A DNA stretch of 34,471 nucleotides from an uncultured Planctomycetia bacterium (GTDB taxonomy: Bacteria; Omnitrophota; Gorgyraeia; Duberdicusellales; 4484-171), in the NCBI GenBank assembly GCA_964577045.1, contig CAZNWL010000001.1:1-34471 (forward strand). Direction: 5' to 3'. The notes below the pieces were generated by a model. That model was not told the origin of the DNA and made no database searches. It was given only the letters and a program-made list of their open reading frames with translations. Numbering within the stretch: the stretch's first letter is position 1; every line of letters begins with the position of its first letter. The position numbers and the translations under genes were made by a program. Below, piece after piece: positions 8,303-34,471 of this stretch.

Positions 8303-10363
8303 ATGGCTGAAAATATTTTAGTAACCGGAGGCTGCGGTTTTATCGGCTCGCATTTTGTGCGTTACCTTTTGCAAAACAAAGGCAACTGCAACGTATTTAA
8401 TTTGGATAATTTAAGCTACGCCGGAGACGAGGCCCGTTTAAAAGATATCGCTAAAAATAAAAACTATCATTTCGTCAAAGCAGACCTGCGCAATATCGCT
8501 GATATCGAAGAAGTTTTTTCCCATCCCATAGACACGGTTGTGCATTTGGCGGCCGAAAGCCACGTAGACAATTCCATAAAAGACCCTTTTGTTTTTGAAG
8601 AAGTGAATGTCCGGGGCGCGCTTAACCTTTTATCTTGTACCCATAAATATAAGGTAAAGAAATTTGTTCATATCAGCTGCTACGATGAAACTACGAGAGC
8701 TTTAACCATAAAGGGGTTTAAAACCTATAAAGAACTTCGAAAAGGAGATTTAGTTTTTTCTTTGAATCCTCATACGAAAGAGATAGAACTGAAACCAATA
8801 GAGAAAGTTATTATACAAAAATATAAAGGTTCCATGATTCATTTTAATAACAGGAGGATAGATTTGCTCGTAACTCCTAATCATAATATGTTTATTCTTA
8901 ATAGCGCTAGGAAATTAATTAATGAACCAGCTTGGAAGTCGTGCAAGCGCAGCATTTTTTATATGCCTCGGGGGTGCTGGAAAGGTATAGAAAACGAGTC
9001 TTTCTACGTCAAAAGCTATGGGCGAGTAAATACCAATGATTTATTTTATATTCTAGGTATTTTCATAGGGGATGGTTTTACTGCTTATCAGGAAAAAATT
9101 TCTGAGACAATAACCGGATTGTCGCGAAAAAGTTATCTATTGAAAGCAAGAGATAAAATTAGTGGACGGTTCAAATCAATAGTTAGACAAGGGAGTTATA
9201 AGAGCATAAATCGTGGTTATCGCATATTTTTTGATATTCCAGAAAATGATGCGTGCCGGCCGAAAGTAGAAAGAGCTTTATCGCGAATGGGAATTAAATA
9301 TCACGCCCATAAGGGTAAGGCTGGAACCCATTTATATTTTACATCGAGAGCATTTATGAAATTTTTCAATCAATGTGGCCAAGGAGCGGTTAACAAACAT
9401 ATCCCCCACTGGGTTTTGGCTTATTCACAGGAATACTTAAAATATTTGTTTGAAGGGTTGATGGATTCAGATGGAAGCAAAAATCGTATTTATTTTACAG
9501 TTTCACCAATGTTAGTTTCTAATATTGTTGAACTTTCTATGAAATTAGGTTTAAAGCCCAACATTAATAAACGATACTGTATATCTTATATTCGTTCTAG
9601 AAAGATCGAAGGCGAATCTTATTATATTTCCTTTGGGGAGACAGAAAAATCAATCTCTAGGAATCGGATTAGGGAAGTTAATTATGCTGGCGACATTTGG
9701 TGTTTAAAAGTTAAAGATAATAAAAATTTTATTGTTGAGAGGAACGGAAAAATTGATTTTTGTGGAAATACCGATGAAGTCTACGGCGAAATCAAGCAAG
9801 GTAAATTTACCGAAGAGTCTCCTTTGGCGCCGAATTCGCCCTATTCGGCAAGCAAAGCTGCGGCGGATTTTTTGGTCAGGGCTTATGTGCGCACCTATAA
9901 TTTCCCGGCTGTCATTATCCGTCCTTCCAACAATTACGGCCCCTGGCAATATCCCGAAAAGTTTATTCCTGTGGCTATTTCCAGCGTTCTTTCCGATAAG
10001 AAAATCCCGGTTTACGCTCAAGGCTTGAATTGCCGCGAATGGCTTTATGTCACTGACTGCGCCAAAGGTATTGCTTTAGTGATGGATAAGGGCGTAATCG
10101 GCGAAGTTTACAATTTAGGTTCGGGTATGGAAAAAAGAAATATCGATGTAGCCAGAGAAATTCTTAAACTGCTGGGAAAAGAAGAAAACTTCATTGATTT
10201 TGTCACTGACCGGCCAGGGCACGATTTTCGTTACTCGCTGGATTCGTCAAAGATTAAGGCTTTAGGCTTTAGCCCCCAGATGGATTTTCAAACTGGAATC
10301 AAGAATACCGTGGAATGGTATAAAGAAAAAAGGACTTGGACCGAGGAAAAGTTGGGTATTTAG
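8303..10363 (+). CDS. rfbB: dTDP-glucose 4,6-dehydratase precursor interrupted by an in-frame intein (exteins 8303-8677 and 9770-10363)
   Basis: The N-extein carries VTGGCGFIGSH, HLAAESHVD and ends FVHIS. The C-extein resumes with TDEVYGE and carries SPYSASK, RPSNNYGP.Q.PEK and DRPGHD.RY. The joined exteins total 322 aa, a normal RmlB length. Confidence 0.9.
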   Translation: MAENILVTGGCGFIGSHFVRYLLQNKGNCNVFNLDNLSYAGDEARLKDIAKNKNYHFVKADLRNIADIEEVFSHPIDTVVHLAAESHVDNSIKDPFVFEEVNVRGALNLLSCTHKYKVKKFVHISCYDETTRALTIKGFKTYKELRKGDLVFSLNPHTKEIELKPIEKVIIQKYKGSMIHFNNRRIDLLVTPNHNMFILNSARKLINEPAWKSCKRSIFYMPRGCWKGIENESFYVKSYGRVNTNDLFYILGIFIGDGFTAYQEKISETITGLSRKSYLLKARDKISGRFKSIVRQGSYKSINRGYRIFFDIPENDACRPKVERALSRMGIKYHAHKGKAGTHLYFTSRAFMKFFNQCGQGAVNKHIPHWVLAYSQEYLKYLFEGLMDSDGSKNRIYFTVSPMLVSNIVELSMKLGLKPNINKRYCISYIRSRKIEGESYYISFGETEKSISRNRIREVNYAGDIWCLKVKDNKNFIVERNGKIDFCGNTDEVYGEIKQGKFTEESPLAPNSPYSASKAAADFLVRAYVRTYNFPAVIIRPSNNYGPWQYPEKFIPVAISSVLSDKKIPVYAQGLNCREWLYVTDCAKGIALVMDKGVIGEVYNLGSGMEKRNIDVAREILKLLGKEENFIDFVTDRPGHDFRYSLDSSKIKALGFSPQMDFQTGIKNTVEWYKEKRTWTEEKLGI
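8678..9769 (+). mobile_element. Intein (364 aa) with a LAGLIDADG homing-endonuclease domain, inserted in rfbB
   Basis: It starts with Cys (CYDETTRALT) and has a TxxH block (LLVTPNH). The two dodecapeptide motifs are LGIFIGDGF and LFEGLMDSDGS. It ends IVERNGKIDFCGN, followed by Thr at +1. The insert is AT-rich: I counted 19/60 GC at 8821-8880 versus 30/60 at 9841-9900. Confidence 0.85.
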
Positions 10364-10366
10364 TTT

Positions 10367-11314
10367 ATGGAAAAAACAGCCAGAATTTATATTGCCGGGC
10401 ATTCGGGTTTAATCGGACAGGCCTTGGTGCGCCAATGCAAAGCCAGCGGTTACCATAATCTTTTATTCAGGAGCCATAAGGAGCTGGATCTTAAGCGCGG
10501 GCAAGATGTGGAGGATTTTTTTAAGCAAGAACAGCCCGAATACGTGGTTTTGGCCGCGGCCAGAGTCGGCGGGATTAAGGCCAACTCTAGTTTCCCGGGC
10601 GAATTTATCTATGAAAATTTAGCTATTCAAACCAATGTCATTCATTCAGCTTATTTATGCAAAGTCAAAAAACTTCTCTTTTTCGGGACGGCTTGCAGTT
10701 ATCCCAGAGAGGCCAAACAGCCGCTCAAAGAGGAATATCTGTTCAGCGGAAAATTAGAGCCGACCAATGAGGCTTATGCTGTAGCTAAGCTGGCCGGTAT
10801 GAAGATGATTGAGGCTTACCATAACCAATACGGAATAAATTTTATTTCGGCGCTTTTGACTAATGCTTATGGTTTAGACGACCGTTTTGATTCTCCTGAT
10901 GCGCACGTTATCCCGGCTTTATTGAAAAGGTTTCACCAGGCTAAAGTTTTAAGAGAGCCAATAGTATCTATTTGGGGCTCTGGCCGTCCTCAAAGAGAGT
11001 TCATCTTTGCTGATGATGCTGCCGGAGCAGTAATTTTTTTGATGAATAATTATGACCGCCCAGAAGTGATTAATGTCGGCACCGGACAAAGCACATCGAT
11101 AAAAGAGTTGGCAGAAATAATTAAAACAGTGGTGGGTTATACGGGGGAAGTTAAATTTGACACCTCCAAGCCGGACGGAGCGCCTTGTAAAGTTTTAGAT
11201 GTTTCTAAATTATCCCGCCTTGGCTGGCAGGCAGAAACTTCTTTAAGACAGGGCTTGGAGCAAACTTATAGCTATTATCTTAAACAGTTAGAGGAGGCAG
11301 CGATAGCCAAATGA
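10367..11314 (+). CDS. fcl: GDP-L-fucose synthase (GDP-4-keto-6-deoxymannose 3,5-epimerase/4-reductase)
   Basis: IYIAGHSGLIG, LAAARVGGI.AN, GTACSYP, EPTNEAYAVAK and HVIPALL are typical Fcl/WcaG motifs. It is adjacent to a Gmd-like gene. Confidence 0.8.
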   Translation: MEKTARIYIAGHSGLIGQALVRQCKASGYHNLLFRSHKELDLKRGQDVEDFFKQEQPEYVVLAAARVGGIKANSSFPGEFIYENLAIQTNVIHSAYLCKVKKLLFFGTACSYPREAKQPLKEEYLFSGKLEPTNEAYAVAKLAGMKMIEAYHNQYGINFISALLTNAYGLDDRFDSPDAHVIPALLKRFHQAKVLREPIVSIWGSGRPQREFIFADDAAGAVIFLMNNYDRPEVINVGTGQSTSIKELAEIIKTVVGYTGEVKFDTSKPDGAPCKVLDVSKLSRLGWQAETSLRQGLEQTYSYYLKQLEEAAIAK

Positions 11315-12291
11315 AAGTATTAATTACCGGAATTACCGGGTTTGTGGGCAGCCACTTGGCAGATTATATTTTAGCCGAGCAAAAAGGCACGGAAATTGTA
11401 GGTTTGGTGCGCTGGCGCTCGCCGGCGGATAATGTCCGGCATCTGCAAGGCAAAGTTACACTTTGTTTCGGGGATTTACTGGATTTGCCTTCTTTACGCA
11501 GTTTATTAGCTAAGCACCGGCCAGAAATTATTTTCCACCTGGCTGCCCAAAGCTACGTTGACTTTAGTTTTATCGCGCCGGTAGCTACTCTAGAGGCTAA
11601 TGTGATTGGAACCTGTAACCTTTTAGAGGCAGTTAAAGAGTTAAAATTCAGTTCGGGCTATGACCCAGTAATGCATATTTGTAGCAGTTCGGAAGTTTAT
11701 GGCCAGGTTAAAGAAAACGAAGTCCCTATCACCGAAAATAATCCTTTCCGGCCGGCTTCGCCCTATGCGGTGAGCAAAGTAGCCGAGGATATGCTGGCTG
11801 CGCAATATTGGCTCTCTTGGAAAATCAAAACTATAAGGACGAGGATGTTTACTCACACCGGCCCTCGTCGAGGAGAGTTTTTCGCCGAATCTAATTTTGC
11901 CAAACAGATTGCCGAAATAGAAGCCGGGCTGAAACCCCCGGTGGTCAAGGTCGGTAATTTAAACAGTTTGCGCACCTTTACCGATGTGCGTGATGCAGTC
12001 AGGGCGTATTGGCTTTTAGCCACTAAATGCCCTGCCGGCGAAGTTTACAATATCGGCGGGACAGAAACCATGTTGGTCGGCGAAATGCTGAATAAACTGC
12101 TTAAACTTTCCACACGCAATGATATCAAGATAGAAGTTGACCCGGCGCGATTGCGGCCTTCGGATGTAACTTTACAGATTCCTTCTACGGAGAAATTTCA
12201 TCAAGCCACGGGCTGGAAGCCGGTGATTAAGTTTGAGCAAACCCTTAAGGATTGCCTGGACTACTGGCGCAAATTTTACGGGAGAAGCTGA
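11311..12291 (+). CDS. gmd: GDP-mannose 4,6-dehydratase family enzyme (short Gmd/Rmd type)
   Basis: ITGITGFVGSH, HLAAQSYVD.SF, SSSEVYG, SPYAVSK and FTHTGPRRGE.F match the family. It overlaps the fcl stop (ATGA). Confidence 0.65.
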   Translation: MKVLITGITGFVGSHLADYILAEQKGTEIVGLVRWRSPADNVRHLQGKVTLCFGDLLDLPSLRSLLAKHRPEIIFHLAAQSYVDFSFIAPVATLEANVIGTCNLLEAVKELKFSSGYDPVMHICSSSEVYGQVKENEVPITENNPFRPASPYAVSKVAEDMLAAQYWLSWKIKTIRTRMFTHTGPRRGEFFAESNFAKQIAEIEAGLKPPVVKVGNLNSLRTFTDVRDAVRAYWLLATKCPAGEVYNIGGTETMLVGEMLNKLLKLSTRNDIKIEVDPARLRPSDVTLQIPSTEKFHQATGWKPVIKFEQTLKDCLDYWRKFYGRS

Positions 12292-13280
12292 TGCTGGAAG
12301 AAAATACAGTAACTCTTAAAGAAAAAAGAATTTTAAACCTTAACTTATATAGAAAGCTTTATCTGGCCAGAACGAGCGAGGAAAAAATCATTGAGCATTA
12401 CCCTGCCAATAAGATGAAGACGCCCATGCATATGTCCATGGGTTCAGAAGCTATCGCCTGCGGAGTATGCCAGGCTCTCGCTAAAGAGGACCAGATTTTC
12501 GGCACTTACCGCTCGCATGCTATTTATCTGGCTAAAACCGGAGATATTGACGGTTTTTTCGCTGAAATGTACGGAAAAGACAGCTCAATTATTAAGGGTA
12601 AAGGCGGCTCCATGCATTTGTGCTGCCCGGAATACGGATTCCTGGGGAGTTCAGCCATAGTCGGCAGCGCTATCGCAGTTGCCGTAGGCGCAAGCTTTGC
12701 CAATAAAAGAGCCGAGAATAATAGAATTGTGGCGGTATTTTTCGGTGACGGGGCCACGGACGAAGGCGCTTTTTGGGAAAGCCTAAACCTTGCCTGTTTA
12801 ATGAAACTGCCGATTTTATTTATTTGCGAAGATAACGGTTTGGCTATCCAAACCCGGCCGGCTACGCGCTGCGGTTATAATTCCATTACCGATATTGTTG
12901 CAAAATTTAACTGTAATGTATTTAAAGAGAAGAGCACGGACGCCGAAATTATTTACGAATTGGCTGCTACGGCAATTGAAAAAATGCGTTCTAACCAGAT
13001 GCCCTGCTTTTTGCATTTAAGGTATTACCGTTATTTAGAGCATGTGGGCATAAACAAAGATTTTCATCTGGGATACCGTTCCCAGGAAGAATTTGAAGAG
13101 TGGCTGAAAGCAGACCCGGTAAAAATTCAGAGAGAAAAGCTTCTAGCTTTAGAATACAGCGATGCAGAGTTAAAGAAGCTGGAAAAAGATATTGAAGACA
13201 GGATAAATAAAAGTATAGAGAAAGCGGACAAGGCTCCTTTCTGCTCTGAAGATGAAGCTCATAGAGGAGTATTCGGATGA
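12291..13280 (+). CDS. Thiamine-diphosphate-dependent dehydrogenase E1 alpha-like subunit
   Basis: YRSH, GKGGSMH and the TPP-binding GDGATDEG...ICEDNG motif are present. I prefer the ATG at 12291 over 12252, because its A is the last base of the gmd TGA stop (TGATG overlap). Confidence 0.75.
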   Translation: MLEENTVTLKEKRILNLNLYRKLYLARTSEEKIIEHYPANKMKTPMHMSMGSEAIACGVCQALAKEDQIFGTYRSHAIYLAKTGDIDGFFAEMYGKDSSIIKGKGGSMHLCCPEYGFLGSSAIVGSAIAVAVGASFANKRAENNRIVAVFFGDGATDEGAFWESLNLACLMKLPILFICEDNGLAIQTRPATRCGYNSITDIVAKFNCNVFKEKSTDAEIIYELAATAIEKMRSNQMPCFLHLRYYRYLEHVGINKDFHLGYRSQEEFEEWLKADPVKIQREKLLALEYSDAELKKLEKDIEDRINKSIEKADKAPFCSEDEAHRGVFG

Positions 13281-14314
13281 GGAAGATTACTTATTGCGAA
13301 GCCGTCAAAGAAGCCATGGCCCAGGAGATGGAAAGAGATTCCCGGGTTTTTGTCTACGGCTTGGGCACGCCTGATTTGGGAGTTTTTGGCAGCACTGTGG
13401 GGTTAGAGAAAAGGTTCGGCTCTGCGCGCTGTTTTGATACGCCGATTTCCGAAGACAGCATGGTCGGCTTTGGCCTGGGCGCGGCGATTAACGGCCTGCG
13501 GCCGATTCATGTGCATATCCGTATGGATTTTCTGCTTCTGGCGATGAATCAGCTGGCGAATATGGTTTCCAGCTTCCGTTATTTATCCGGAGGAAAAATC
13601 GATGTGCCTTTGGTGATACGCGCAGTCATCGGAAGGGGCTGGGGCCAGGGCTGCCAGCACAGCAAGAGCGCTTATGCTTCGTTTGCCCATATCCCGGGTT
13701 TAAAATTAGTGATGCCGACTACGCCGCGCGACGCTAAAGGGCTGCTTATTTCAGCTATTCGCGACAATAATCCGGTAATTTGTGTGGAGCACCGCTGGCT
13801 GTATTGGCAGGAAGGCGAAGTGCCCGAGGAGCCTTTTGCTATTCCCATAGGAGAATCAAATGTTTTACACCAGGGAAAAGATATTACCATTATCGCTATT
13901 TCCTGGATGAACGTAGAAGCGCTTAAGGCAGCAGAAATTTTAGCGAAAAGAGGAATCAGCGTGGAGATAGTTGACCCCCGGACAATTTCTCCGTTCAATG
14001 AAGATATAGCGGTTAAATCAGTGGAGAAGACCGGTTATTGTATTGTAGCTGACAATGACTGGCTGCATTGCGGCTTCAGCGCCGAAATAGCGGCGCGGAT
14101 TTCCGAAAAATGTTTTGGCAAATTAAAATATCCGGTGCAGAGAATCGGTTTTGCTCCTACTCCCTGCCCTACAGCCAGGCATTTAGAGAACGAGTTTTAT
14201 CCTAACGCAGCCAAGATTATCCGTGCGGTGGAGAAAATGCTGGATTTAAGCCCTGCGGATTTAGAAGGAGAAGAGTTTTACAGCCACGAAAAGAGGTTCA
14301 AAGGCCCTTTCTAA
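13277..14314 (+). CDS. Thiamine-diphosphate-dependent dehydrogenase E1 beta-like subunit (transketolase-like pyrimidine-binding and C-terminal domains)
   Basis: R.FDTPISE....G.G.GAA..G.RP, the HS/PGLK.V.P...DAKGLL region and a C-terminal transketolase-like domain are present. The start overlaps the alpha subunit stop. Confidence 0.8.
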   Translation: MRKITYCEAVKEAMAQEMERDSRVFVYGLGTPDLGVFGSTVGLEKRFGSARCFDTPISEDSMVGFGLGAAINGLRPIHVHIRMDFLLLAMNQLANMVSSFRYLSGGKIDVPLVIRAVIGRGWGQGCQHSKSAYASFAHIPGLKLVMPTTPRDAKGLLISAIRDNNPVICVEHRWLYWQEGEVPEEPFAIPIGESNVLHQGKDITIIAISWMNVEALKAAEILAKRGISVEIVDPRTISPFNEDIAVKSVEKTGYCIVADNDWLHCGFSAEIAARISEKCFGKLKYPVQRIGFAPTPCPTARHLENEFYPNAAKIIRAVEKMLDLSPADLEGEEFYSHEKRFKGPF

Positions 14315-14326
14315 TTAAAAAAAGCT

Positions 14327-16110: not shown

Positions 16111-16112
16111 AG

Positions 16113-18083
16113 ATGAATGATAAGAAAATAAAAGTAGGTTTAGTGCAAATCGGCGATAAATTCGGAGAGCAGTATTACCTTCCTTATTCTATCGCCACTT
16201 TGCAGGCTTATGCTCAAAGCTACCTGAAAAACCCGGAGAGTTTTAGTTTTCTCTTACCTATATATAAGCGCTTAAGCCTTAATGAGGCAGTGAGAGAGCT
16301 TCAACCCAGCCAGATTATCTTTTTCAGCGCCTATGTCTGGAATTACGCTTTGAGTTTGGCTATTGCTAAAAAGATTAAACAAAATAATCCGGAAACCATA
16401 ATAGTTTTCGGCGGGCCGCAGATTCCCGAAGAAGTTAAAGCCTTAGAGTTTTTCTTGCGGGAAAACCCCTTTGTGGATTTGACAGTTTACGGAGAAGGGG
16501 AGATCCCGGTTTTAAAGATTTTAGAAAACTTTAAAACTAAAGATTGGAAGAACGTTCCTTCCGTTGGCTTTATCGGCCCCCAGGATAAGTTTAGCTATAA
16601 CCAAAAAATAGAGCGCATTAGCAAGCTCGACCAGATTCCTTCGGCTTATTTAAGCGGAGTTTTTGAGCCTTTGCTTAAGGCTAACCCCAATGAAGAGTGG
16701 TCTGCGCTTTTAGAGACCAACCGCGGCTGCCCGTATGCTTGCAGTTACTGCTATTGGGGGAAAAAAGAGCGCAGTAAAGTTTATCAGTTTGACTGCGAAA
16801 GAGTGTTTAAGGAAATTGACTGGTTCAGCCGCCATAAAATCCAGTTTGTTTTCTGCTGCGACGCTAATTTCGGGCTGTTCAAGCGCGATTTAGATATTGC
16901 TTTGAAAGTTTCCCAGAATAAAAATAAATACGGCTATCCTCAAGGTTTTTCCGTGCAGAATACCAAGAATTCAAGCGCCGATATTTTTAATCTGCAAAAA
17001 GTTTTAACGGAAAATGGCTTACAGCGCGGAGTAAATCTCGCCCTGCAGTCAGTTAATCCCCAGACTTTAAAAAGCATAAACCGCAATAATATCCCGGCGG
17101 CAATGTATAAAGAACTGCAAACTATGTTTTCTAAGGAGAATATCCCGACCTTCAGCGACATTATCATCGGCTTGCCCGAAGAAACTTATGAAAGCTTTAC
17201 CGAGGGTGTTTCCGAGATAATTGCCAGCGGCCAGCATAACCGCATTCAATTTATTAACCTGGCGATTTTAGAAAACTCCCAGATGGCCGAGAAAGCTTAT
17301 CAGGAAAAATATGGTTTAGCGGCCAAAGAAATAAAGAGCATCGCTCATCATACCAGCCTCAATGAGGATTTAGAAGTCAGCGATACGCAAAAGCTGGTGG
17401 TGGCTACCAAAGCTATGCCGGCAAAAGATTGGGTAAGAACGCGGGTATTTTCCTGGATGGTTTCCTTGTTATATTTCAATAAGTTATTGCAGATTCCATT
17501 TTTAGTTTTAAATAAGCTTTCTAATGCGAGCGCTAAAGAGTTGGCCGAGGCTTTTATAGATGAGAAAAAATATCCGATGATTACCCGCGTGGTGGATTTT
17601 TTCAGGGAAAAAGCCAAAGCCATGCAAGCCGGCGGAAATGAATTCGTGGCTGCGCCTGAATACCTGAATATCTGGTGGCCGGCAGACGAATATATGTTTA
17701 TCAAACTTTGCTTGGAAAACTTTGATGAGTTTTATCGGGCTTGCGGCCAGCTGCTGCGTGAGTTTATTGCCGAGAAAAAAATAGAGTTTGCGGACGCGCT
17801 TTTAGTTGAAAGCCTGGCTTTAAATAGAGCTTTGATTAAACTGCCCGGAGAGAATCAGGATTTAGAAATAAACTGCGCTTATAATCTTTATGATTTTTAT
17901 CAAAGCCTTTTAAAAAACGAGGTTTTGCCTTTGAGAAAAGTAAGCTCTAAATATCTTGCGCTACGCAGCCAGAGCCAATGGGATTTAGCCGATTGGTTAA
18001 GAGAAGTGGTCTGGTATGGCACAAAGCGCGGGGCTTACCTTTATGAGTGTAGAGCCAGTAAAATAACAGAAGTGGCGGTTTAA
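16113..18083 (+). CDS. B12-binding-domain radical SAM enzyme (class B), 656 aa with a long C-terminal extension
   Basis: It has an N-terminal Rossmann-like cobalamin-binding-type domain (IIFFSAYVWN...IIVFGGPQ). The CxxxCxxC motif is NRGCPYACSYCYW (Cys codons at 16728-16751). Confidence 0.8.
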   Translation: MNDKKIKVGLVQIGDKFGEQYYLPYSIATLQAYAQSYLKNPESFSFLLPIYKRLSLNEAVRELQPSQIIFFSAYVWNYALSLAIAKKIKQNNPETIIVFGGPQIPEEVKALEFFLRENPFVDLTVYGEGEIPVLKILENFKTKDWKNVPSVGFIGPQDKFSYNQKIERISKLDQIPSAYLSGVFEPLLKANPNEEWSALLETNRGCPYACSYCYWGKKERSKVYQFDCERVFKEIDWFSRHKIQFVFCCDANFGLFKRDLDIALKVSQNKNKYGYPQGFSVQNTKNSSADIFNLQKVLTENGLQRGVNLALQSVNPQTLKSINRNNIPAAMYKELQTMFSKENIPTFSDIIIGLPEETYESFTEGVSEIIASGQHNRIQFINLAILENSQMAEKAYQEKYGLAAKEIKSIAHHTSLNEDLEVSDTQKLVVATKAMPAKDWVRTRVFSWMVSLLYFNKLLQIPFLVLNKLSNASAKELAEAFIDEKKYPMITRVVDFFREKAKAMQAGGNEFVAAPEYLNIWWPADEYMFIKLCLENFDEFYRACGQLLREFIAEKKIEFADALLVESLALNRALIKLPGENQDLEINCAYNLYDFYQSLLKNEVLPLRKVSSKYLALRSQSQWDLADWLREVVWYGTKRGAYLYECRASKITEVAV

Positions 18084-18086
18084 ACT

Positions 18087-19073: not shown

Positions 19074-19167
19074 CCAAAATTCAAATGACCGAAACAATTA
19101 GTTTTTTTAATTTTGAAAATTTGAATTTGGAATTTATTTGTAATTTGGTGCTTGGAATTTGGAATTT
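19030..19167. repeat. AT-rich palindromic element built from 4 direct plus 4 inverted copies of AAATTC(C)AA, with a perfect 22-bp inverted-repeat core (19049-19070 / 19127-19148)
   Basis: Direct copies start at 19030, 19044, 19062 and 19077. Inverted copies lie at 19120-19128, 19127-19135, 19152-19160 and 19158-19167. The outer 10-mers at 19030-19039 and 19158-19167 are also perfectly complementary. A T7 run (19102-19108) lies near the centre of symmetry. Confidence 0.6.
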
Positions 19168-19184
19168 AAGGAGTAACAACACGA

Positions 19185-20495: not shown

Positions 20496-20497
20496 AT

Positions 20498-23240: not shown

Positions 23241-23312
23241 GGCGCTATTCGCTGTGTTTTTCAAAAACTAGAAATAGGTTATATAGAGAAGAAAATTTCG
23301 AAAATTTGAAAA

Positions 23313-24569
23313 ATGGCTAAAAAAATTATTGATAACATTAGGTTTATAAAGCGGGACCTGTCCCCAAAAATGAAGATTCCGTTTGGCACGATTACAGTGA
23401 GCGAGAAGTCAAGGCAGCTGATTAACGCGGCTTTGGATGCAAACCGCCTTTCTTCGGGTAAATACGTGCGCGAGTTTGAAGAGAAGTTTGCCGCGCTGGT
23501 CGGGGTAAAAGAAGCCGTGGCAGTGGCCAGCGGCACTGATGCTTTGGCTTTGGCCTTGGCTGTGCTTTATGATTTCGGCGCCAGAAAAAACGATGAAGTA
23601 ATTATTCCGGCTTTGTCTTTTGTGGCTACGGGTAATGCGGTGCTGCAAGCCGGGTTTAAGCCGGTTTTCGTGGATGTGGATTTAAAAACTTTAAACATCA
23701 TCCCGGAAAAAATAGAAGCGGCAATCAGCGCGAAAACTCGGGCTATTCTTCCGGTACATTTGATGGGAAAGCCCGCGGCTATGGAGGCGATAAACCGCAT
23801 CGCTAAAAAGCGCAAGCTCTATGTGATTGAAGACGCGGCTGAAGCCCATGGCGCAGAATATAAAGGTAAGCGCGCCGGAAGCCTGGCTGATATGGGAGCT
23901 TTCAGCCTTTATGTGGCGCATATTATTACTACTGCCGAAGGCGGGATAGTCACTACTGATAATTCTGCATTCGCCGAAATCTTAAGGTCTTTGCGTTCAC
24001 ACGGCCGGGCTTGTAAATGCAGGAGCTGTGTGTTAAATACTGCCTCCAGTTTTTGCGACAAAAGATTCAAGCAGGGGAAAAATAAAGATATCCGCTTTAT
24101 CTTTGAGCGCATTGGTTTTTCCTGCAAAATGAATGAGCTGGAAGCAGCTATCGGCATCGGCAATTTAGACAACTATCAGCAAATTCTGGATAAAAGAAGG
24201 GCGAATTTGCTTTATTTAATCAATAAGTTTAAAGAGTTTCGGCCATATTTAACCACTATCTGCGAAGAGGCCGGCGAAAAAATCGGGCCGCATGCGTTTC
24301 CTTTTATCGTGGGTAAAAAGGCGAAGTTCAGCCGCGAAGAATTAAGCGGATTTTTAGAAAAGAGAGGAGTGGATACCCGCACTTTGTTTTCCTCAATCCC
24401 TACGCAATGCGCGGGATTTAAATTTTTAGGGCATAAGTTGGGGGATTTTCCTAATGCCGAATATATCGGAGAAAACGGCATACATATCGGGGTGCATCAG
24501 GATTTAAATAAGGGGCACATGGAATATTTTATTAACTTGATTCACGAATTTTTAAAAGCCAATGCCTAA
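23313..24569 (+). CDS. DegT-fold PMP-dependent NDP-4-keto-6-deoxy-sugar 3-dehydratase candidate (E1/RfbH/ColD-like)
   Basis: GAFSLYVAHIITTAEGG aligns residue for residue with GAFSFFPSKNLGAFGDGG of the upstream DegT. This places His203 (23919-23921) where the PLP lysine sits. A Cys cluster CKCRSCVLNTASSFCDKRF follows (24012-24056). Confidence 0.6.
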   Translation: MAKKIIDNIRFIKRDLSPKMKIPFGTITVSEKSRQLINAALDANRLSSGKYVREFEEKFAALVGVKEAVAVASGTDALALALAVLYDFGARKNDEVIIPALSFVATGNAVLQAGFKPVFVDVDLKTLNIIPEKIEAAISAKTRAILPVHLMGKPAAMEAINRIAKKRKLYVIEDAAEAHGAEYKGKRAGSLADMGAFSLYVAHIITTAEGGIVTTDNSAFAEILRSLRSHGRACKCRSCVLNTASSFCDKRFKQGKNKDIRFIFERIGFSCKMNELEAAIGIGNLDNYQQILDKRRANLLYLINKFKEFRPYLTTICEEAGEKIGPHAFPFIVGKKAKFSREELSGFLEKRGVDTRTLFSSIPTQCAGFKFLGHKLGDFPNAEYIGENGIHIGVHQDLNKGHMEYFINLIHEFLKANA

Positions 24570-26952
24570 AACTAAACACGCGATTATTCTCGGCGCCGGA
24601 GCAGTGGGCCTGGTTTCTGCCTGGAAGCTTTTGGATGAAGGCTTTAAGGTGGACATCTATGAAAAAGATAGCCAGGTTGGCGGAATGTGCAAGACCTGGA
24701 AGTGGAAAGAGTTTTTAGTGGATTGCGGCCCGCATATTTATCATACCCCCGATGAAAAATTAGCCGGATTCTGGGAGAAAGAGTTCGGCGACTTATTCGT
24801 GAAAGGGGATTTCTGGTGCAAAAACGTCAAAGGCGATAATTTTAACCAATACTGGGATTACCCGCTTTCCTGGGAAAGCATTTCCCGTTATCCTAAAAAG
24901 CTAAAAGACAAGGTTTTGTCTGAACTGCATAATATCAGCTTTGAAAAAAGAACGCAGGCGAAAAACTATACCGAATATATGGAGGCGCAAGTCGGCCAGA
25001 CTTTACGGGAGATGTTTTTTAAGCAGTTCCCGGAAAAAATCTGGGGCATTTCCACTGACACTATGGCTTGCGAATGGGCGCCTAAGCGCATTGAAGTGCG
25101 CCAGAAGGTCACGCCTTTTTACCACCGGCAGTGGAATGCCGTGGGTAAATTCGGAACCGGCTGTATTTTTGAGCGGATAAAAGAAAAAATTGAAAAATCC
25201 GGCGGGAAAATCCACCTTAACTGCGAAGTGAAAGGCTTTGAAACCAAAGGAAACTTGATTACCGCTGTCAAATTAACCGGAGGAAAAATCAGGAAAGTGG
25301 AACCCGAAGATGTGATAATTTCCAGCTTGCCGATTACTCTGCTGGCTAAATTTTTGGGCTATAACAGCAAGCTGAAGTTCAGGGCTTTGCGCACAGTTTA
25401 TTTAGCCTACGATAAGCCTATGATTCTGCCTCAAGGCATAGACTGGCTTTATTATGATTCGCCAAAAACTTATTTCAGCCGGATTACCGAGCCGAAAAAA
25501 CTTTCCAAAGCTTTAGCGCCTAAAAATAAAACTTACCTTAGCGCAGAAATAACCTGCGCCCAAGGCGATAAGATTTATCAAATGGATAAAAATAAACTGA
25601 TTAAAGAAACAGCCCGACAAGTGGAACTGGTGGGTTTGATAGAAGCAGGCCAGTTAAAAGAGGCAACAGTGCATACCGAAGATTATGTCTATCCTATTCA
25701 AGGCCGGGGCTATCAAGAGGAGCTTTCTAAAACCCGCGCGGTAATTACTAAATACCAACAGCTTTATTCTCTGGGCACCGGCGGAGAGTTCCACTATGCT
25801 GATATTCAGATAATCTTTCATAAAGTTTTTGACTTGGTAGCCGTACTTTGCGGGAAAGATTCAAAAATAAGCCAGACTATTCGTAAAACCCCGCGCTGCC
25901 AGCTGAATACAAGTATTTTTATCGGAAAGCGCGAGATAAGCGAAGCAAAGCCGGCTTATATCATTGCCGAAGCCGGCTTAAACCATAACCAGAGTCTAAC
26001 TATTGCCAAAAAGCTGATTGATGCGGCGAAAGAATCCGGAGCAGACAGCATCAAGTTTCAAAGTTTTAAGCCGGGCAGCCGCGTCTCTAAAAAAGTAAAA
26101 GCCGCGCGTTATGCCGAAACTATTATCGGCACCGAAGAAACTATCGCTGATATGTTTGACCGCTTGAGCTTAAGCTACGCCGACCAGAAAGAGCTTTTTA
26201 ACTACGCCCGTAAAACCGGCATAGAAATATTTTCCACTCCTTTTGATTTTGAAAGCGCTGACTTCTTAAACAGCTTAGGAGTGAATGTTTTTAAAATCGC
26301 TTCTATGGATTTGGTGAACCTGCCTTTGATTAAACATATCGCCGGCTTCGGCAAACCCATGATTCTTTCTACGGGCATGTCCACTTTAGGCCAGATCGAA
26401 GAAGCTTTAGAGACTATCCGCCAGCAGGGAAATCCCAACGTGGCTTTGCTGCATTGTAACTCGGCTTATCCGGCTGCGCCCGAAGAGATGAATTTAAAGG
26501 TGATAGATACTTTGAAGAGCTGTTTTAAAGTTCCGGTCGGGCTTTCTGACCATACTTTCGGCTTGGCAGTTTCCCATACGGCGCTGGCCTTAGGCGCGAA
26601 TTTAATCGAGCGGCATTTTACTTTGGATAGGGCAATGGAAGGCCCTGACCATATCTTATCTTCTACGCCCGAAGAGTTAGCAGAGCTGGTTTCTCTGGCT
26701 AAAAAAATCCCGCTGATTTTAGGCGACGGAATAAAACGCATCCAGCCTAATGAGTATGATACTTTGAATATGCAGCGAAAAAGCCTTTACGCCGCGCGCA
26801 ATATTAAAAAAGGCGCGGTGATTACTTCGGATATGATTGTCATTAAAGGCCCGGGAGGCGGTTTGTTACCGCGCTATTTAGAAGTAGTTACCGGAAGAGT
26901 GGCGCGCGCGGATATTGAAGAGGACCATCCGATTACCTGGGATGTGATTTAA
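24562..26952 (+). CDS. Fusion protein: N-terminal FAD-dependent oxidoreductase (amine-oxidase / UDP-galactopyranose-mutase-like fold, aa 1 to ~435) plus C-terminal NeuB-type ulosonic-acid synthase with a SAF domain (aa ~451-796, nt ~25912-26949)
   Basis: The N-terminus carries the dinucleotide motif ILGAGAVGL...DIYEKDSQVGG. The C-terminus carries YIIAEAGLNHNQS, KFQSF, FSTPFD, KIASMD, STGMS, LLHCNSAYPA, LSDHT and a SAF-like tail. It is one continuous 796-aa ORF. Confidence 0.8.
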   Translation: MPKTKHAIILGAGAVGLVSAWKLLDEGFKVDIYEKDSQVGGMCKTWKWKEFLVDCGPHIYHTPDEKLAGFWEKEFGDLFVKGDFWCKNVKGDNFNQYWDYPLSWESISRYPKKLKDKVLSELHNISFEKRTQAKNYTEYMEAQVGQTLREMFFKQFPEKIWGISTDTMACEWAPKRIEVRQKVTPFYHRQWNAVGKFGTGCIFERIKEKIEKSGGKIHLNCEVKGFETKGNLITAVKLTGGKIRKVEPEDVIISSLPITLLAKFLGYNSKLKFRALRTVYLAYDKPMILPQGIDWLYYDSPKTYFSRITEPKKLSKALAPKNKTYLSAEITCAQGDKIYQMDKNKLIKETARQVELVGLIEAGQLKEATVHTEDYVYPIQGRGYQEELSKTRAVITKYQQLYSLGTGGEFHYADIQIIFHKVFDLVAVLCGKDSKISQTIRKTPRCQLNTSIFIGKREISEAKPAYIIAEAGLNHNQSLTIAKKLIDAAKESGADSIKFQSFKPGSRVSKKVKAARYAETIIGTEETIADMFDRLSLSYADQKELFNYARKTGIEIFSTPFDFESADFLNSLGVNVFKIASMDLVNLPLIKHIAGFGKPMILSTGMSTLGQIEEALETIRQQGNPNVALLHCNSAYPAAPEEMNLKVIDTLKSCFKVPVGLSDHTFGLAVSHTALALGANLIERHFTLDRAMEGPDHILSSTPEELAELVSLAKKIPLILGDGIKRIQPNEYDTLNMQRKSLYAARNIKKGAVITSDMIVIKGPGGGLLPRYLEVVTGRVARADIEEDHPITWDVI

Positions 26953-28008: not shown

Positions 28009-28011
28009 CTT

Positions 28012-30530: not shown

Positions 30531-30533
30531 GCT

Positions 30534-31832
30534 ATGGAAAATAAGCAGAAAGCGCGGATTTTGATGTATTGCGGAAACGGCTATTCTTTCAGCGAATACT
30601 TTAAGCCGCTTATTGAGGAATTGGCTGATGATTGTGAGATAGAGCTGCTTCAGGGCGACTATCATCTTGGCCAGACAACCAAAGGGTTAATCCAAGAATT
30701 AACCGCCAAAAATAACTTTGCTTACCAGATTATACCGGTATTTACCTGGAACAGGTCAGTTTTAGAATATCACCGTAGCATGGCGCAATTAACAAACAAC
30801 TTAAAGGATAAACCCTTTGATTTATTCGTAGTCAGCAGTGATTCCAGTTTAACTGACCGCTATTTAGTTGATTTAGCCAAGTCTTTAGGGGCTAAAGTGG
30901 TCGTGATTTATGCCAGCGTATTTTTTGTGAAACTTTTTAATCTTTATAGAAAGCTTATAGGAGTTGATAAAAAATCCTATCTGGAAAAAGCTAAAGACAA
31001 AGTAGCGACAGTTAAAAATATGAAGCAAAGGAAGGTTTCGTTTTTAAATTATTTCTGGTGGCGGGTTAAATGGTTAAAAGAAAAAATAGCTAAGGACTTT
31101 AAAATTTTTATGAATTACTATATCCTGCCCTATATTTTTTCAAGGAGAACCTTTCCTCGGAATAAATATGATACCTTTAGCCATGTTTCTGGTCGCGCAG
31201 ACACATTTATTTGTTATAATTTTAGGGAAGCGGATGCGATAAGAAAAGTAGTTATTCCGGCTAAAGATGTGCGTTTGGCAAAACATCCGGCTGTTTTATA
31301 TTGCCGCAGCCCTAAAGAGGCAACCCGCAAACTGCTATTGCTTTTGGGGGATCAGGTTGACGAATTACGTGATGACCAGATTAGTTTTTGGGTTGAGGTT
31401 ATAAAAGAAGCAGTTAAGGCGGAAGGTTTAAATGAGGTTCATTTTCGTTTTCATCCCCGTACAGATAAAAATCTTCCTCAACCTAAGAAATTAATAGCTT
31501 CTGTGGCAAAGCTTAATTTAAAGACAGAGATAATTGATGCCAATACAGTGCCTTTAGTCCAAATCTTAGGTGATTATCTCGGTGTAATTGGCGTACTTTC
31601 CGGCTCCTTACGTACAGCCAGGGCTGTATCCAAAGGTTTTGTTATCGGGTTGCTGGATGCTTGTGGGAATTTTCCTGATGAAGATTGGATGTTAGGAGAT
31701 CCCGAAGGCATTATTTGGATTCGTAATGGCCAAAAGATACAAGCCGAGCATTTTGCTGTGCCGCCGCTTTACGGTGAGGATAGGCCGAAGGTATCGGAGA
31801 TACTAAAAGAATTAGTATGCAGTCAACGATAA
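30534..31832 (+). CDS. Hypothetical protein, 432 aa; possibly a two-Rossmann-domain (GT-B-like) surface-carbohydrate transferase
   Basis: It is a long ORF in the operon frame context. By eye it shows alternating beta-alpha character in both halves, with no diagnostic motif. Its position between the exporter and a cytidylyltransferase is the only functional hint. Confidence 0.3.
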   Translation: MENKQKARILMYCGNGYSFSEYFKPLIEELADDCEIELLQGDYHLGQTTKGLIQELTAKNNFAYQIIPVFTWNRSVLEYHRSMAQLTNNLKDKPFDLFVVSSDSSLTDRYLVDLAKSLGAKVVVIYASVFFVKLFNLYRKLIGVDKKSYLEKAKDKVATVKNMKQRKVSFLNYFWWRVKWLKEKIAKDFKIFMNYYILPYIFSRRTFPRNKYDTFSHVSGRADTFICYNFREADAIRKVVIPAKDVRLAKHPAVLYCRSPKEATRKLLLLLGDQVDELRDDQISFWVEVIKEAVKAEGLNEVHFRFHPRTDKNLPQPKKLIASVAKLNLKTEIIDANTVPLVQILGDYLGVIGVLSGSLRTARAVSKGFVIGLLDACGNFPDEDWMLGDPEGIIWIRNGQKIQAEHFAVPPLYGEDRPKVSEILKELVCSQR

Positions 31833-32617
31833 GAAAAGGAAAAATCGCCGCGATTATTCAAGCCCGGATGGGCTCAACCCGCTTGCCGGGAAAAATCCTG
31901 ATGGAGGTAAACTATCGTCCGCTATTGGATTATATGGTGGAGCGGGTAAAAAGGAGCAAATATATCAAGCAGGTGATTATCGCTACCACTGTTTCTCACC
32001 AAGACCAGCCGATAGTTGACTGGTGCAAAGCTAATCAGGTGGAATTCTGCCGCGGCGATGAGGAAGATGTTTTGGCCCGTTATTACTATGCTGCCAAGGA
32101 GTTTAAAGTTTCCGTAATCGTGAGAGTTACTTCAGACTGCCCGTTAATGGATCCGGAAGTTATTGATAAAACCATTGAGGCTTTTCTTGGCGATTCGCAT
32201 CTCGATTTTGCCTCAAGTACTACGCCGCTGCCTTGTTTATATCCTGACGGCATGGACGTGGATGTTTTTAATTTTAACCTTTTAGAGAAAACTCATTACG
32301 AAGCCAAACTTCCTTCGGAAAGAGAGCATGTAACCTTTTATATGTGGAAGACTGGAAAATTTAAAGTGAAAAGAATCGACCCTAAAGAGGATTTGTCTTC
32401 TTATCGTTTTTGCATTGACTATCCTCAAGATTTTACCGTGATACAGGAAGTGTTGACTAAACTTTACCCAAAAAATCCTAAGTTTTCCGTGTATGAATTG
32501 ATAGATTTTATGAAAGCTAACCCCCGGCTTTTAGCCTTGCAGAAAGGCATTAAGCGCAATGCCGGCTGGCAAAGGGCTTTGGATAAAGACTTAAAATATT
32601 TGGAGCAAAACAAATGA
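31817..32617 (+). CDS. SpsF-like cytidylyltransferase (CMP-ulosonic-acid synthetase family)
   Basis: KIAAIIQARMGSTRLPGK.L, the VIIATT motif and RVTSDCPL are typical of the SpsF/NeuA-like cytidylyltransferase family. Confidence 0.75.
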   Translation: MQSTIRKGKIAAIIQARMGSTRLPGKILMEVNYRPLLDYMVERVKRSKYIKQVIIATTVSHQDQPIVDWCKANQVEFCRGDEEDVLARYYYAAKEFKVSVIVRVTSDCPLMDPEVIDKTIEAFLGDSHLDFASSTTPLPCLYPDGMDVDVFNFNLLEKTHYEAKLPSEREHVTFYMWKTGKFKVKRIDPKEDLSSYRFCIDYPQDFTVIQEVLTKLYPKNPKFSVYELIDFMKANPRLLALQKGIKRNAGWQRALDKDLKYLEQNK

Positions 32618-34471
32618 AACCGCCAAAAAAGAGTTTAGCTTTACAGGAAAAAGGAAAAAAGTTTATTCCCGGCTTAACCCAGCTTCTTTCTAAAAGGCCT
32701 GACCAGTTTGCTCCCGGGCTTTGGCCGGGATATTTTGAAAAAGCCAAAGGCATAGAAGTCTGGGATTTGGACGGAAACCGTTATCTGGATATGAGTATCA
32801 GCGGCATCGGAGCAGTAATTTTAGGTTATTGTGATCCTGATGTGGATAAGGCAGTTAGAGAAGTAATCAAGAAAGGCAATTTTTCTTCGCTCAATTGCCC
32901 GGAAGAAGTCGAACTTGCAGAGTTACTTTGCGAAATCCATCCCTGGGCGAAGCTTGTGCGTTATGGCCGCGGCGGCGGAGAAGTTATGGCTATTGCCGTG
33001 CGCATTGCCCGCGCCTTTACTGGCCGCGATAAAATAGCTTTTTGTTATGACGAAACAACAGAAATACTCACAAGAGATGGTTTTAAAAGAATCAAAGATA
33101 TAGATAAACAAGAAGTAGTAGCTACTCTCAATCCCACTACAAATCAATTAGAATACAAACAGATTGAAAGAAAGCTGAGGTATCGCTTTTCAGGGAAAAT
33201 GATACATTTCAAAGGGCAAAGGGTTGATTTAATGGTGACTCCTGAACATAAAATATATAGGAAGTTTCGCTTAAGAAAGGGTTATCATTTTAAATTAGTG
33301 GAAGCCAGAAGTGCTTTAAGATCTAAAGTAATGACTCAAATGACTTCTGTATGTGAGTGGAAAGGTGAAGTTAAGAAAGAGATTGTTATTCCTCAAATAG
33401 TTGGTCAAACTCGGCCAACAAAGGGCATTTGTTCATTTTCCGCGAAAGCTTTTGTTAGATTTATGGGTTGGTACTTATCCGAGGGTTGTTGCGTGGAACA
33501 GAAGAGAAGGAGATATGAAGTAAGTATAGCTCAAGATAGAAAGAATTTCAATAAGAGCAGGGAAATATTCTCAACGATTAGAAAATTGGGATTTGCTCCT
33601 TACCGGAACGGGCATCATATTTGTTTTAGCTCTAAAGAGTTGGTGCAATATTTAAAACAATTTGGAAAGTGCAAAGATAAGTATATTCCAGATTGGATAA
33701 AAAATTTGTCCACTAACTATATTTCTATTTTTGTAGACGCTATGATAAAAGGAGATGGCACTTTTGAGAAAGGTAAAATACGCAAATTCTATTCTACCTC
33801 TAAAAGATTGATAGATGGTATGCAAGAGATATTATTGAAAATTGGTTATTCTACCACAGTTTCAGAGCACACCAACATTGGATTTTCTAAAGATAAAGTA
33901 TATCATTTATATATAAGTAAGGAGAATATTTTAGGAAGTTGGCCAGAAGAGGAATATTACGATGGTTACGTATATTGCGTAACTGTGCCTAACCATATCG
34001 TTCTCGTGAGACGAAATGGAAAATTAGCCTGGTCAGGAAATTGCGGCTACCACGGTTGGTGTGACTGGTATTTAGCCGCTAATTTAAGTTCGGATAAGTC
34101 GCTGGAGGGGCACCTGTTACCGGGATTAGAGCCACGGGGTGTCCCCAGAGGCTTATTGGGGACGGCTTTGCCGTTTCGTTACAACAATATAGAAGAGTTG
34201 GAAAAGATTGTTCGGAATACTAAAGGCAATTTGGCAGCAATCGTGATGGAGCCGATTAGAAACGACCCCCCCCAGAAAGGATTTTTAGAGGCCGTGCGTA
34301 AAATTGCCGATAAAACCGGCGCGGTTTTAATTTTTGATGAGGTATCTTGCGGCTTTCGGATGAATTCCGGCGGCGCGCATCTTTTATTCGGCGTTACGCC
34401 GGATATCGCTGCTTTTGCTAAAGGCATGAGCAACGGTTATCCGATGGGAGCAGTCATAGGCAGAGAAAAGG
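32614..34471 (+). CDS. Class-III (glutamate-1-semialdehyde aminomutase-like) PLP aminotransferase precursor interrupted by an intein; the 3' end lies outside the window. It is not in the supplied ORF track.
   Basis: I translated this frame by hand and it is open from the ATG at 32614 (ATGA overlap with the upstream stop) to nt 34471. The N-extein carries GIEVWDLDGNRYLD and ends RAFTGRDKIAF. The C-extein resumes CGYHGW and carries AAIVMEPI, LIFDEV..GFR and the PLP lysine motif AFAKGMSNGYP. Confidence 0.85.
   Translation, partial: MKPPKKSLALQEKGKKFIPGLTQLLSKRPDQFAPGLWPGYFEKAKGIEVWDLDGNRYLDMSISGIGAVILGYCDPDVDKAVREVIKKGNFSSLNCPEEVELAELLCEIHPWAKLVRYGRGGGEVMAIAVRIARAFTGRDKIAFCYDETTEILTRDGFKRIKDIDKQEVVATLNPTTNQLEYKQIERKLRYRFSGKMIHFKGQRVDLMVTPEHKIYRKFRLRKGYHFKLVEARSALRSKVMTQMTSVCEWKGEVKKEIVIPQIVGQTRPTKGICSFSAKAFVRFMGWYLSEGCCVEQKRRRYEVSIAQDRKNFNKSREIFSTIRKLGFAPYRNGHHICFSSKELVQYLKQFGKCKDKYIPDWIKNLSTNYISIFVDAMIKGDGTFEKGKIRKFYSTSKRLIDGMQEILLKIGYSTTVSEHTNIGFSKDKVYHLYISKENILGSWPEEEYYDGYVYCVTVPNHIVLVRRNGKLAWSGNCGYHGWCDWYLAANLSSDKSLEGHLLPGLEPRGVPRGLLGTALPFRYNNIEELEKIVRNTKGNLAAIVMEPIRNDPPQKGFLEAVRKIADKTGAVLIFDEVSCGFRMNSGGAHLLFGVTPDIAAFAKGMSNGYPMGAVIGREK
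33043..34041 (+). mobile_element. Intein (333 aa) with a LAGLIDADG homing-endonuclease domain, inserted in the class-III aminotransferase
   Basis: It starts CYDETTEILT and has a TxxH block (LMVTPEH). The dodecapeptide motifs are MGWYLSEGC and IFVDAMIKGDGT. It ends LVRRNGKLAWSGN, followed by Cys at +1. The insert is AT-rich: I counted 17/60 GC at 33241-33300 versus 38/60 at 32941-33000. Confidence 0.85.

Follow-up and report, generated by a model that had tools for sequence, protein, structure and literature searches.

Two inteins of a bacterial glycan gene cluster and their place in a large family with Gly-Asn termini

Two genes of a bacterial nucleotide-sugar cluster are each interrupted by an intein, and the two inteins resemble each other. 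The stretch of DNA concerned, referred to throughout as the window, comprises 34,471 nucleotides of contig CAZNWL010000001.1 (assembly GCA_964577045.1) from an uncultured bacterium of the Omnitrophota lineage. The first intein (I1) lies within a gene for dTDP-glucose 4,6-dehydratase (RmlB/RfbB) and the second (I2) within a gene for a class-III aminotransferase. An initial annotation of the window had proposed that one intein lineage spread ectopically between these two sites, which are 23 kb apart, or alternatively that the cluster was invaded repeatedly from a shared intein pool. The relationships described below contradict the former proposal and bear out the latter. I1 and I2 are very probably separate inteins of canonical class-1 type that belong to one large, site-promiscuous family of LAGLIDADG inteins and were acquired independently of each other. 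Repeated invasion is favoured by the separateness of the two lineages, by the existence of allelic relatives for each and by the size and site promiscuity of the family from which both come.

Nearest relatives of the two inteins

Homology of I1 and I2 over their full length, beyond the universal splicing blocks, is confirmed. A BLASTP comparison of the complete inteins gave 25% identity (105 bits, E 2e-30), and significant similarity was found separately for the N-terminal 80 aa (E 9e-26), for the endonuclease region alone (18% identity, E 8e-11, Smith-Waterman z of 15 against shuffled sequences) and for the C-terminal 38 aa (E 1e-6). The motifs listed in the initial annotation were all present in both (CYDETT, LNP, GxMIHF, the VTPxH part of RxDLxVTPxH, and RNGK...GN) and its ungapped count of 34 identities in the first 72 residues was reproduced exactly.

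Relatives were sought by comparing each intein with 5.8 billion proteins. This returned 97 relatives and gave a set of 71 full-length inteins, made up of 69 sequences together with I1 and I2; a long-read contig with an I2-like intein (L002) was not used further on account of its fragmented gene calls. The closest relatives of I1 are inteins of dehydratase orthologues at the same site (S/TDEVYG, where the slash marks the intein junction). Those of L003-L008 are 61-67% identical to I1 and are hosted by two Omnitrophica GWA2_41_15 metagenome-assembled genomes (MAGs), an archaeal MAG and MAGs labelled Clostridia or Gammaproteobacteria, while others at this site, in Nitrososphaeraceae, Staskawiczbacteria and Nealsonbacteria, show 40-48% identity. 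Next come inteins at the GYF/TKYGDG site of NAD synthase, with 36-39%. The closest relatives of I2 are likewise inteins at its own site (/CGYHGW) in aminotransferases; a full-length intein in a Rokubacteria protein (P0028) is 44% identical to I2 and partial sequences from Omnitrophota and metagenomes are 74-78% identical, followed by many inteins of other sites at 30-38%. I1 and I2 add two members to an already known kind of element, and allelic sequences are already held in public databases, for the dehydratase site in L003-L009 and P0001-P0011 (Omnitrophica GWA2_41_15, a WS2 bacterium, a Nitrososphaeraceae archaeon and Staskawiczbacteria/Nealsonbacteria) and for the aminotransferase site in Rokubacteria (P0028) and Omnitrophota (P0037). 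These allelic inteins share site, architecture and terminal motifs with the window inteins, at 40-67% identity to I1 and 44-78% to I2. They differ in that their host exteins are more diverged than the inteins themselves, and none is identical to the window sequence.

A neighbour-joining tree was built from the 71 sequences, which had been gathered through a word-based prefilter (314 columns, 100 bootstraps). I1 fell into a clade with the other dehydratase-site inteins, the NAD-synthase-site inteins and those of one further site with 100% support, I2 grouped with P0028 at 97%, and I1 and I2 were sisters in 0 of 100 replicates. With the splicing-domain columns alone, support for the I1 clade was 76% and for I2 with P0028 60%, and the sister grouping was again seen in 0 of 100. 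Pairwise identity gives the same picture. Among the 70 other members, I2 ranks 38th for I1 and I1 ranks 60th for I2 over the whole intein, and these ranks fall to 62nd and 66th over the endonuclease region. The DNA target sites of the two inteins share 6 of 42 nt, and one endonuclease specificity could therefore not serve both. Direct ectopic spread between the two sites is refuted because each intein groups with inteins of the orthologous site and not with the other, a result that the initial annotation had itself set against the idea.

An actual trace of ectopic site switching is present in the I1 clade, where it occurred between genomes and is older than the pair in the window. This clade spans three non-homologous sites, namely that of the dehydratase, that of NAD synthase (P0014-P0020, one of them named as Archaeoglobus sp.) and ILG/CTLET in P0010, and it is here that a real ectopic move could be studied.

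Both inteins are more similar to their allelic relatives than the host proteins are to one another. The relatives of I1 at 61-67% identity have exteins that are approximately 38-44% (N-terminal) and 50-62% (C-terminal) identical, and those of I2 at 74-78% have exteins at 53-58%. Base composition also sets the inteins apart, the GC content being 0.338 for I1 against 0.430 for the dehydratase exteins and 0.341 for I2 against 0.481 for the aminotransferase exteins. This contrast was found in every host examined (the window, L003-L009 and L012), with inteins at 0.29-0.35 and exteins at 0.31-0.48. Their conservation exceeds that of the host genes, they are absent from the nearest host relatives and they form AT-rich islands; on this classical signature I1 and I2 are read as horizontally transferred, homing inteins. 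On the explanation preferred here the two would have entered their host genes in separate events, each through homing or horizontal transfer out of an allele already filled at the same site. The source of I1 would be the lineage of the S/TDEVYG dehydratase site, with its next relatives at GYF/TKYGDG of NAD synthase, and that of I2 the lineage of the AF/CGYHGW site of class-III aminotransferases.

The rule that allelic inteins group first is upheld by both. It has been reported that allelic inteins are more closely related, even across distant species, than are non-allelic inteins within one species, and that Methanococcus jannaschii has 19 inteins, with three in RFC (PMC1635734). Both features of such multi-intein genomes, the co-residence of several non-allelic inteins and the primacy of allelic relationship, are also seen in the window, but the hosts differ, being archaeal replication and transcription genes in the former and bacterial glycan-biosynthesis enzymes in the latter.

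Architecture of the two interrupted genes

The limits first given for the two inteins (8678..9769 and 33043..34041) proved exact. Both are in-frame insertions for which contiguous intein-free alleles exist, and the interrupted genes contain matches to Pfam Intein_splicing (Table 1). In the dehydratase the Pfam Epimerase and GDP_Man_Dehyd matches are broken in two by I1, and the spliced protein aligns without a gap across ...STDEVYG... with solved RmlB structures (6bi4, E 9e-101). The site is contiguous in the syntenic locus L012, from an Omnitrophota MAG, in which exactly the 1,092 nt of I1 are missing; extein identity between L012 and the window is 85% and neighbouring genes are 70-80% identical at the nucleotide level. 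The Thr+1 of the dehydratase is what we take to be the first residue of the conserved S-T-D-E-V-Y-G active-site stretch. An intein was found at S/TDEVYG in 7 of 68 related dehydratase loci (L003-L009). Matches of 1.4-2.9 kb in many loci were considered as intein-bearing dehydratase alleles and rejected, since tblastn showed them to be mostly neighbouring paralogous genes of the short-chain dehydrogenase/reductase (SDR) type that had been joined.

The dehydratase of L012 carries another, unrelated intein of approximately 335 aa (10259..11263 in JAHKAJ010000015, corresponding to window position ~8560), which begins with Ser1 and ends in Cys-His-Asn/Thr. It lies in the AAE/(S/T)HVD motif of the same protein, a site that is empty in the window. 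With filled and empty sites thus reciprocal in the window and L012, the dehydratase gene can be regarded as an intein hot spot.

The ATG of the aminotransferase gene shares bases with the stop of the cytidylyltransferase gene ahead of it (ATGA), and the N-extein has 85% identity to P0098, which is free of an intein. In the syntenic metagenome locus L071 precisely the 999 nt of I2 are absent, so that window positions 33044 and 34042 meet at a single point there. The flanks of this empty site, GGCCGNGANANAATAGCTTTY on the one side and TGCGGNTACCAYGG on the other, are nearly identical to those in the window, and the order of genes is the same (NeuB fusion, dehydrogenase, ABC, cytidylyltransferase, aminotransferase). 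The 120 closest aminotransferase homologues (68-85% identity) are all too short to contain an intein, with lengths of 281-455 aa and a median of 438. Most of them have the FCGYHGW motif intact, and the 12 commonest variants of it account for 111 of the 120. I2 is presumably inserted two residues ahead of the aromatic residue of the Y-H-G motif. The two loci, L012 and L071, provide clean pairs of filled and empty sites that are on hand for homing and splicing experiments.

The residues of class 1 inteins were found in both elements, in I1 as C1, LLVTPNH and GN/T and in I2 as C1, LMVTPEH and GN/C. At the penultimate position (G:6), where His is common without being defining, both have Gly. Two LAGLIDADG motifs with an acidic residue are present in each, GIFIGDG and GLMDSDG in I1 and GWYLSEG and AMIKGDG in I2. 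The Cys at F:4 prompted consideration of a class 3 assignment, with residues numbered after PMC4031507 (Trp B:12, Cys F:4, Thr G:5). This was rejected, as Cys1 is present and both Trp B:12 and Thr G:5 are absent; B:12 is Met in I1 and Ile in I2, G:5 is Cys in I1 and Ser in I2, and only the F:4 Cys is shared with the class 3 WCT set.

An AlphaFold model of I1 (pLDDT 94.3) found its best PDB matches in the PI-PfuI, PI-PkoII, TliVMA and Pho VMA inteins and in PI-SceI, and Foldseek comparison with intein structures (E 1e-14 to 1e-9) points to a Hint fold. For the central domain of the model the matches are I-DmoI together with the endonuclease parts of PI-PfuI and PI-SceI. A Hint fold would be expected also for I2, which is homologous over its full length both to I1 and to the family profile described below. 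Single-sequence searches of I1 and I2 against the PDB gave no match; matches required the family profile, which recovered PI-PkoII (2e-21), the VMA inteins and PI-SceI. Pfam endonuclease models scored under their cutoffs on I1 (Hom_end 14.7 bits), and LAGLIDADG_3 reached 38.6 bits on I2 against a cutoff of 22.5. The window inteins thus have the Hint domain and inserted two-motif LAGLIDADG endonuclease of PI-PfuI (1dq3), PI-PkoII (2cw7), Tli and Pho VMA (7qsu, 7qst) and PI-SceI (1vde), at a sequence identity of only 10-15%. In these solved inteins of archaea and yeast the terminus is His-Asn, and the hosts are replication or ATPase genes. Those of the window differ in their Gly-Asn end, their F:4 Cys and their sugar-pathway hosts.

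Splicing would be expected to proceed by an acyl shift at Cys1, transesterification to Thr+1 in the dehydratase or Cys+1 in the aminotransferase, cyclisation of the terminal Asn and acyl rearrangement, and would restore the active-site motif interrupted by each intein. The acidic catalytic residues of the endonuclease domains are retained, and each domain would be expected to cleave intein-free alleles at its own site and no other. It had been suggested that the two inteins splice by the same type of chemistry. As far as Cys1 and the Gly-Asn end are concerned this holds, but the +1 nucleophile is Thr in the one and Cys in the other.

Table 1. Features of the two interrupted genes and of the surrounding cluster (window coordinates; a slash marks an intein junction; ORF, open reading frame)
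Feature	Position	Strand	Details
Dehydratase ORF with insert	8303..10363	+	686 aa
Dehydratase N-extein	8303..8677	+	dTDP-glucose 4,6-dehydratase (RmlB/RfbB), residues 1-125, end ...KKFVHIS
Intein I1	8678..9769	+	364 aa; junctions ...FVHIS/CYDETT...FCGN/TDEVYG
I1 Cys1			CYDETT start
I1 block B	8864..8884	+	LLVTPNH
I1 LAGLIDADG motif	9053..9079	+	LGIFIGDGF
I1 LAGLIDADG motif	9446..9478	+	LFEGLMDSDGS
I1 block F	9692..9712	+	DIWCLKV; Cys at F:4 (9698..9700)
I1 C-terminus	9734..9769	+	VERNGKIDFCGN, then TDEVYG
Dehydratase C-extein	9770..10363	+	Start TDEVYGE; Thr+1, predicted splice nucleophile
Aminotransferase N-extein	32614..33042	+	Class-III (glutamate-1-semialdehyde aminomutase-like), end ...GRDKIAF
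Intein I2	33043..34041	+	333 aa; junctions ...KIAF/CYDETT...WSGN/CGYHGW
I2 Cys1			CYDETT start
I2 block B	33229..33249	+	LMVTPEH
I2 LAGLIDADG motif	33460..33489	+	FMGWYLSEGC
I2 LAGLIDADG motif	33730..33762	+	FVDAMIKGDGT
I2 block F	33967..33987	+	YVYCVTV; Cys at F:4 (33973..33975)
I2 C-terminus	34006..34041	+	VRRNGKLAWSGN, then CGYHGW
Aminotransferase C-extein	34042..34471	+	Start CGYHGW (Cys+1); ORF runs past window end
RmlA, RmlC, RmlB			dTDP-rhamnose pathway; with many other SDR epimerases/dehydratases in the cluster
DegT-type aminotransferases; cytidylyltransferases
ABC exporter
ATP-sulfurylase/APS-kinase fusion	Among 3387..5276, 12252..14314, 16113..18083, 19185..20495
E1 alpha/beta pair, thiamine pyrophosphate (TPP)-dependent; two B12-binding radical-SAM enzymes	Among the same four stretches

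A large family of Gly-Asn inteins

Within the 71 full-length inteins a Gly-Asn end is found in 69, a CY start in 58 and a CYD start in 44, VTPxH in 52 and NG(K/R/I/H) near the end in 52. No variation is seen in a 22-sequence alignment (A1) at C1, at the block B His, at the Asp of the second LAGLIDADG motif or at the Gly and Asn of the terminus. In the alignment of all 71, the acidic residues of the LAGLIDADG motifs are D or E in 69 and D in 70. Position 4 of block F is Cys in 59 and Asp in eight; Cys has been described as the second commonest residue at this position (PMC4031507). The residue ahead of Gly-Asn is Ser in 43, Cys in 26 and Thr in two. The family can be recognised by an initial Cys followed by Tyr or Phe, by VTPxH in block B, by a stretch of RNGK and the Gly-Asn end, and in most members by the F:4 Cys. 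Because CYD, VTPxH, RNGK and Gly-Asn are hallmarks of the family, the likeness of I1 and I2 in these motifs is a likeness at the level of the family. The Gly-Asn end, pointed out as an unusual feature that the two have in common, is indeed present in both, although it is unusual only by comparison with the textbook His-Asn and is the rule among their relatives. Terminal motifs shared by co-resident inteins should accordingly not be read as a sign of a local jump, since they can be the hallmarks of a large family.

The 71 inteins occupy approximately 40 insertion sites by manual count from the junctions. Their hosts, as identified with Pfam, include GTP cyclohydrolase I, ThyX, thymidylate synthase, both subunits of ribonucleotide reductase and DNA methyltransferases, and in addition metallophosphoesterases, RuvC, RNase HII, NAD synthase, peptidases and several SDR sugar enzymes. 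In SDR nucleotide-sugar enzymes, further sites of the I2-like group were seen at RS/CYDEGKR (P0053, P0071, P0073, P0076) and MGP/CGSWN (P0056). Together with the dehydratase sites S/TDEVYG and AAE/(S/T)HVD this makes at least four intein sites in the SDR nucleotide-sugar superfamily.

A search of 1.84 billion cluster representatives with a family profile made from 22 members matched 53,143 clusters at E<=1e-3, 27,267 at 1e-10 and 9,185 at 1e-30. The top 150 matches contain 258 full-length copies, 238 of which have a Gly-Asn end. Among these top matches (P0218-P0367) there are 101 proteins with two or three copies, and some have up to 11 matched stretches. With so many multi-copy proteins among the top matches, it appears to be common for one gene or genome to harbour several members of the family. 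A wider reading, which we put forward tentatively and regard as somewhat less probable than its opposite, is that I1 and I2 are samples of a largely undescribed and exceptionally site-promiscuous superfamily with Gly-Asn ends and F:4 Cys, comprising tens of thousands of clusters and changing sites frequently. If this were so, glycan clusters of Omnitrophota-like bacteria would be recurrent targets of that superfamily, and the I1 clade would record comparatively recent ectopic jumps that are open to dissection. The family itself, very large and spread over many sites, offers a good system in which to study how inteins gain new targets.

A diverse group of inteins ending in Gly-Asn has been described previously (Goodwin et al. 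2006, PMC1635734), including those of Ceu ClpP, Candida ThrRS, Pno RPA2 and Cre RPB2 and some from prokaryotes. In that work non-allelic Gly-Asn inteins were found to group together, and this was read as possible ancient ectopic movement without similarity of the flanks (PMC1635734). The Gly-Asn end and LAGLIDADG endonuclease are common to that group and to the family of the window inteins, a likeness drawn by inspection only, and the latter family is far larger. Splicing without a penultimate His is, as cited in PMC4031507, the subject of a separate paper. In the literature no paper was found on inteins hosted by dTDP-glucose dehydratase/RmlB or by glutamate-1-semialdehyde-type aminotransferases, nor on inteins of Omnitrophica, and the hosts of the window inteins are unmentioned in the main text of the survey by Novikova et al. 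The allelic sequences described above show that in uncultivated lineages intein alleles recur in metabolic genes outside replication, namely those of dTDP-glucose dehydratase and class-III aminotransferase.

Alternative explanations and the surrounding gene cluster

Some observations weigh against the independent acquisition of two canonical inteins. The tree is a neighbour-joining tree of a word-prefiltered set and leaves the deep branching of the family unresolved. In both I1 and I2 the His that assists Asn cyclisation is replaced by Gly, and their splicing and endonuclease activities are predicted from conserved residues. Finally, the first 72 residues of I1 and I2 are 47% identical where the family median is 40%, a value at the 99.2nd percentile of 660 cross-clade pairs, which could hint at some exchange between the two.

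Such exchange could have taken the form of partial gene conversion, in which the inteins arrived separately and their N-terminal splicing lobes swapped sequence while co-resident. The mutual ranks of the two inteins do rise in the N-terminal region, to 13 and 10 from the 38 and 60 seen overall. Inteins of unrelated samples match as well, however. Three of the 60 inteins outside the I1 clade reach at least this value against I1, these being I2 itself, the unrelated P0030 (50%) and P0040 (47%), and P0009, which is related to I1 and comes from a different sample, has 46% identity to I2. Of the codons for the 34 shared N-terminal residues, 15 are the same in both inteins, where 15.0 would be expected from the codon usage of the host. 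The nucleotide identity of this region is 57% and the longest run shared anywhere between the two inteins is 11 nt, which is out of register. In the tree of splicing-domain columns I2 joined the I1 clade in 2 of 100 bootstraps. The N-terminal likeness is accounted for by the closeness of both sequences to the family consensus, a pattern that fits the data, and gene conversion is in our view highly improbable.

Equally improbable is the proposal that the two inteins are domesticated switches, kept because redox state or temperature controls their splicing, so that two branches of surface-glycan synthesis are regulated together. Since both inteins split conserved active-site motifs, the unspliced precursors should be inactive. 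Inactivity before splicing is true of most inteins and is no sign of regulation. A redox trap could in principle be provided by a disulfide between Cys1 and Cys+1, and the F:4 Cys is also common in the family. Such a trap is conceivable for I2 only, because the +1 residue of the dehydratase is Thr, and a common mechanism would therefore not be available to both. The distribution of the inteins also argues against a regulatory role, with the closest syntenic relatives lacking each of them (L012, L071), all 120 of the nearest aminotransferase homologues intein-free and the dehydratase site filled in only a small minority of related loci, and the endonuclease motifs, which are intact, and the AT-rich composition are in keeping with selfish, mobile elements. 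Sporadic presence, empty syntenic sites and intact endonuclease motifs lead us to read I1 and I2 as selfish elements.

Direct transposition, by which one intein would have been copied between the dehydratase and aminotransferase sites to give true paralogues, is scarcely credible, for although the two lie in one gene cluster, begin with the same six residues, share the family motifs and have an N-terminal identity that is high among cross-clade pairs, they are of low identity and low mutual rank overall and in the endonuclease, are never sisters on either set of columns, have allelic relatives of their own in other organisms at 44-78% identity, show codon identity at the level of chance with no long shared run, lie at unrelated target sites and have syntenic relatives in which one or other site is empty.

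Both inteins lie in a cluster that forms a single co-directional run of 28 genes across the 34.5-kb window, nearly all of which encode enzymes of nucleotide-sugar and glycan pathways as judged from Pfam and ORFs. The dehydratase and class-III aminotransferase genes are the only two of the 28 that are interrupted. An identical dehydratase precursor is present on a 6-kb contig of JGI metagenome 3300022556, and the closest dehydratase exteins, like the syntenic locus L012, belong to Candidatus Omnitrophota MAGs, and these best matches make an Omnitrophota-like bacterium the likely origin of the window. The view that both inteins lie in the same operon is plausible, as the genes are co-directional and tightly packed, but gaps are present. 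In one of these, a 525-nt gap after the sulfurylase/APS-kinase gene and before an SDR gene, there is a perfect sigma-70 consensus (TTGACA, 16 nt, TATAAT; 5339..5366), and the cluster may therefore comprise more than one transcription unit. In a scan of the window, promoter and terminator sites were no more numerous than in shuffled sequence.

The genes for the sulfurylase/APS-kinase, the E1 pair and the B12 radical-SAM enzymes hint that the sugar made by the cluster may be sulfated and either C-branched or methylated. At 24562..26952 there is a 796-aa fusion of an FAD amine-oxidase/UDP-galactopyranose-mutase-like domain with NeuB and SAF, which is kept in L071 (2650..5046, 798 aa). At 30534..32617 a 432-aa protein without a Pfam match and a 266-aa cytidylyltransferase are encoded by separate, overlapping ORFs, whose counterparts in L071 (7911..10004) are joined as one ORF of 697 aa.

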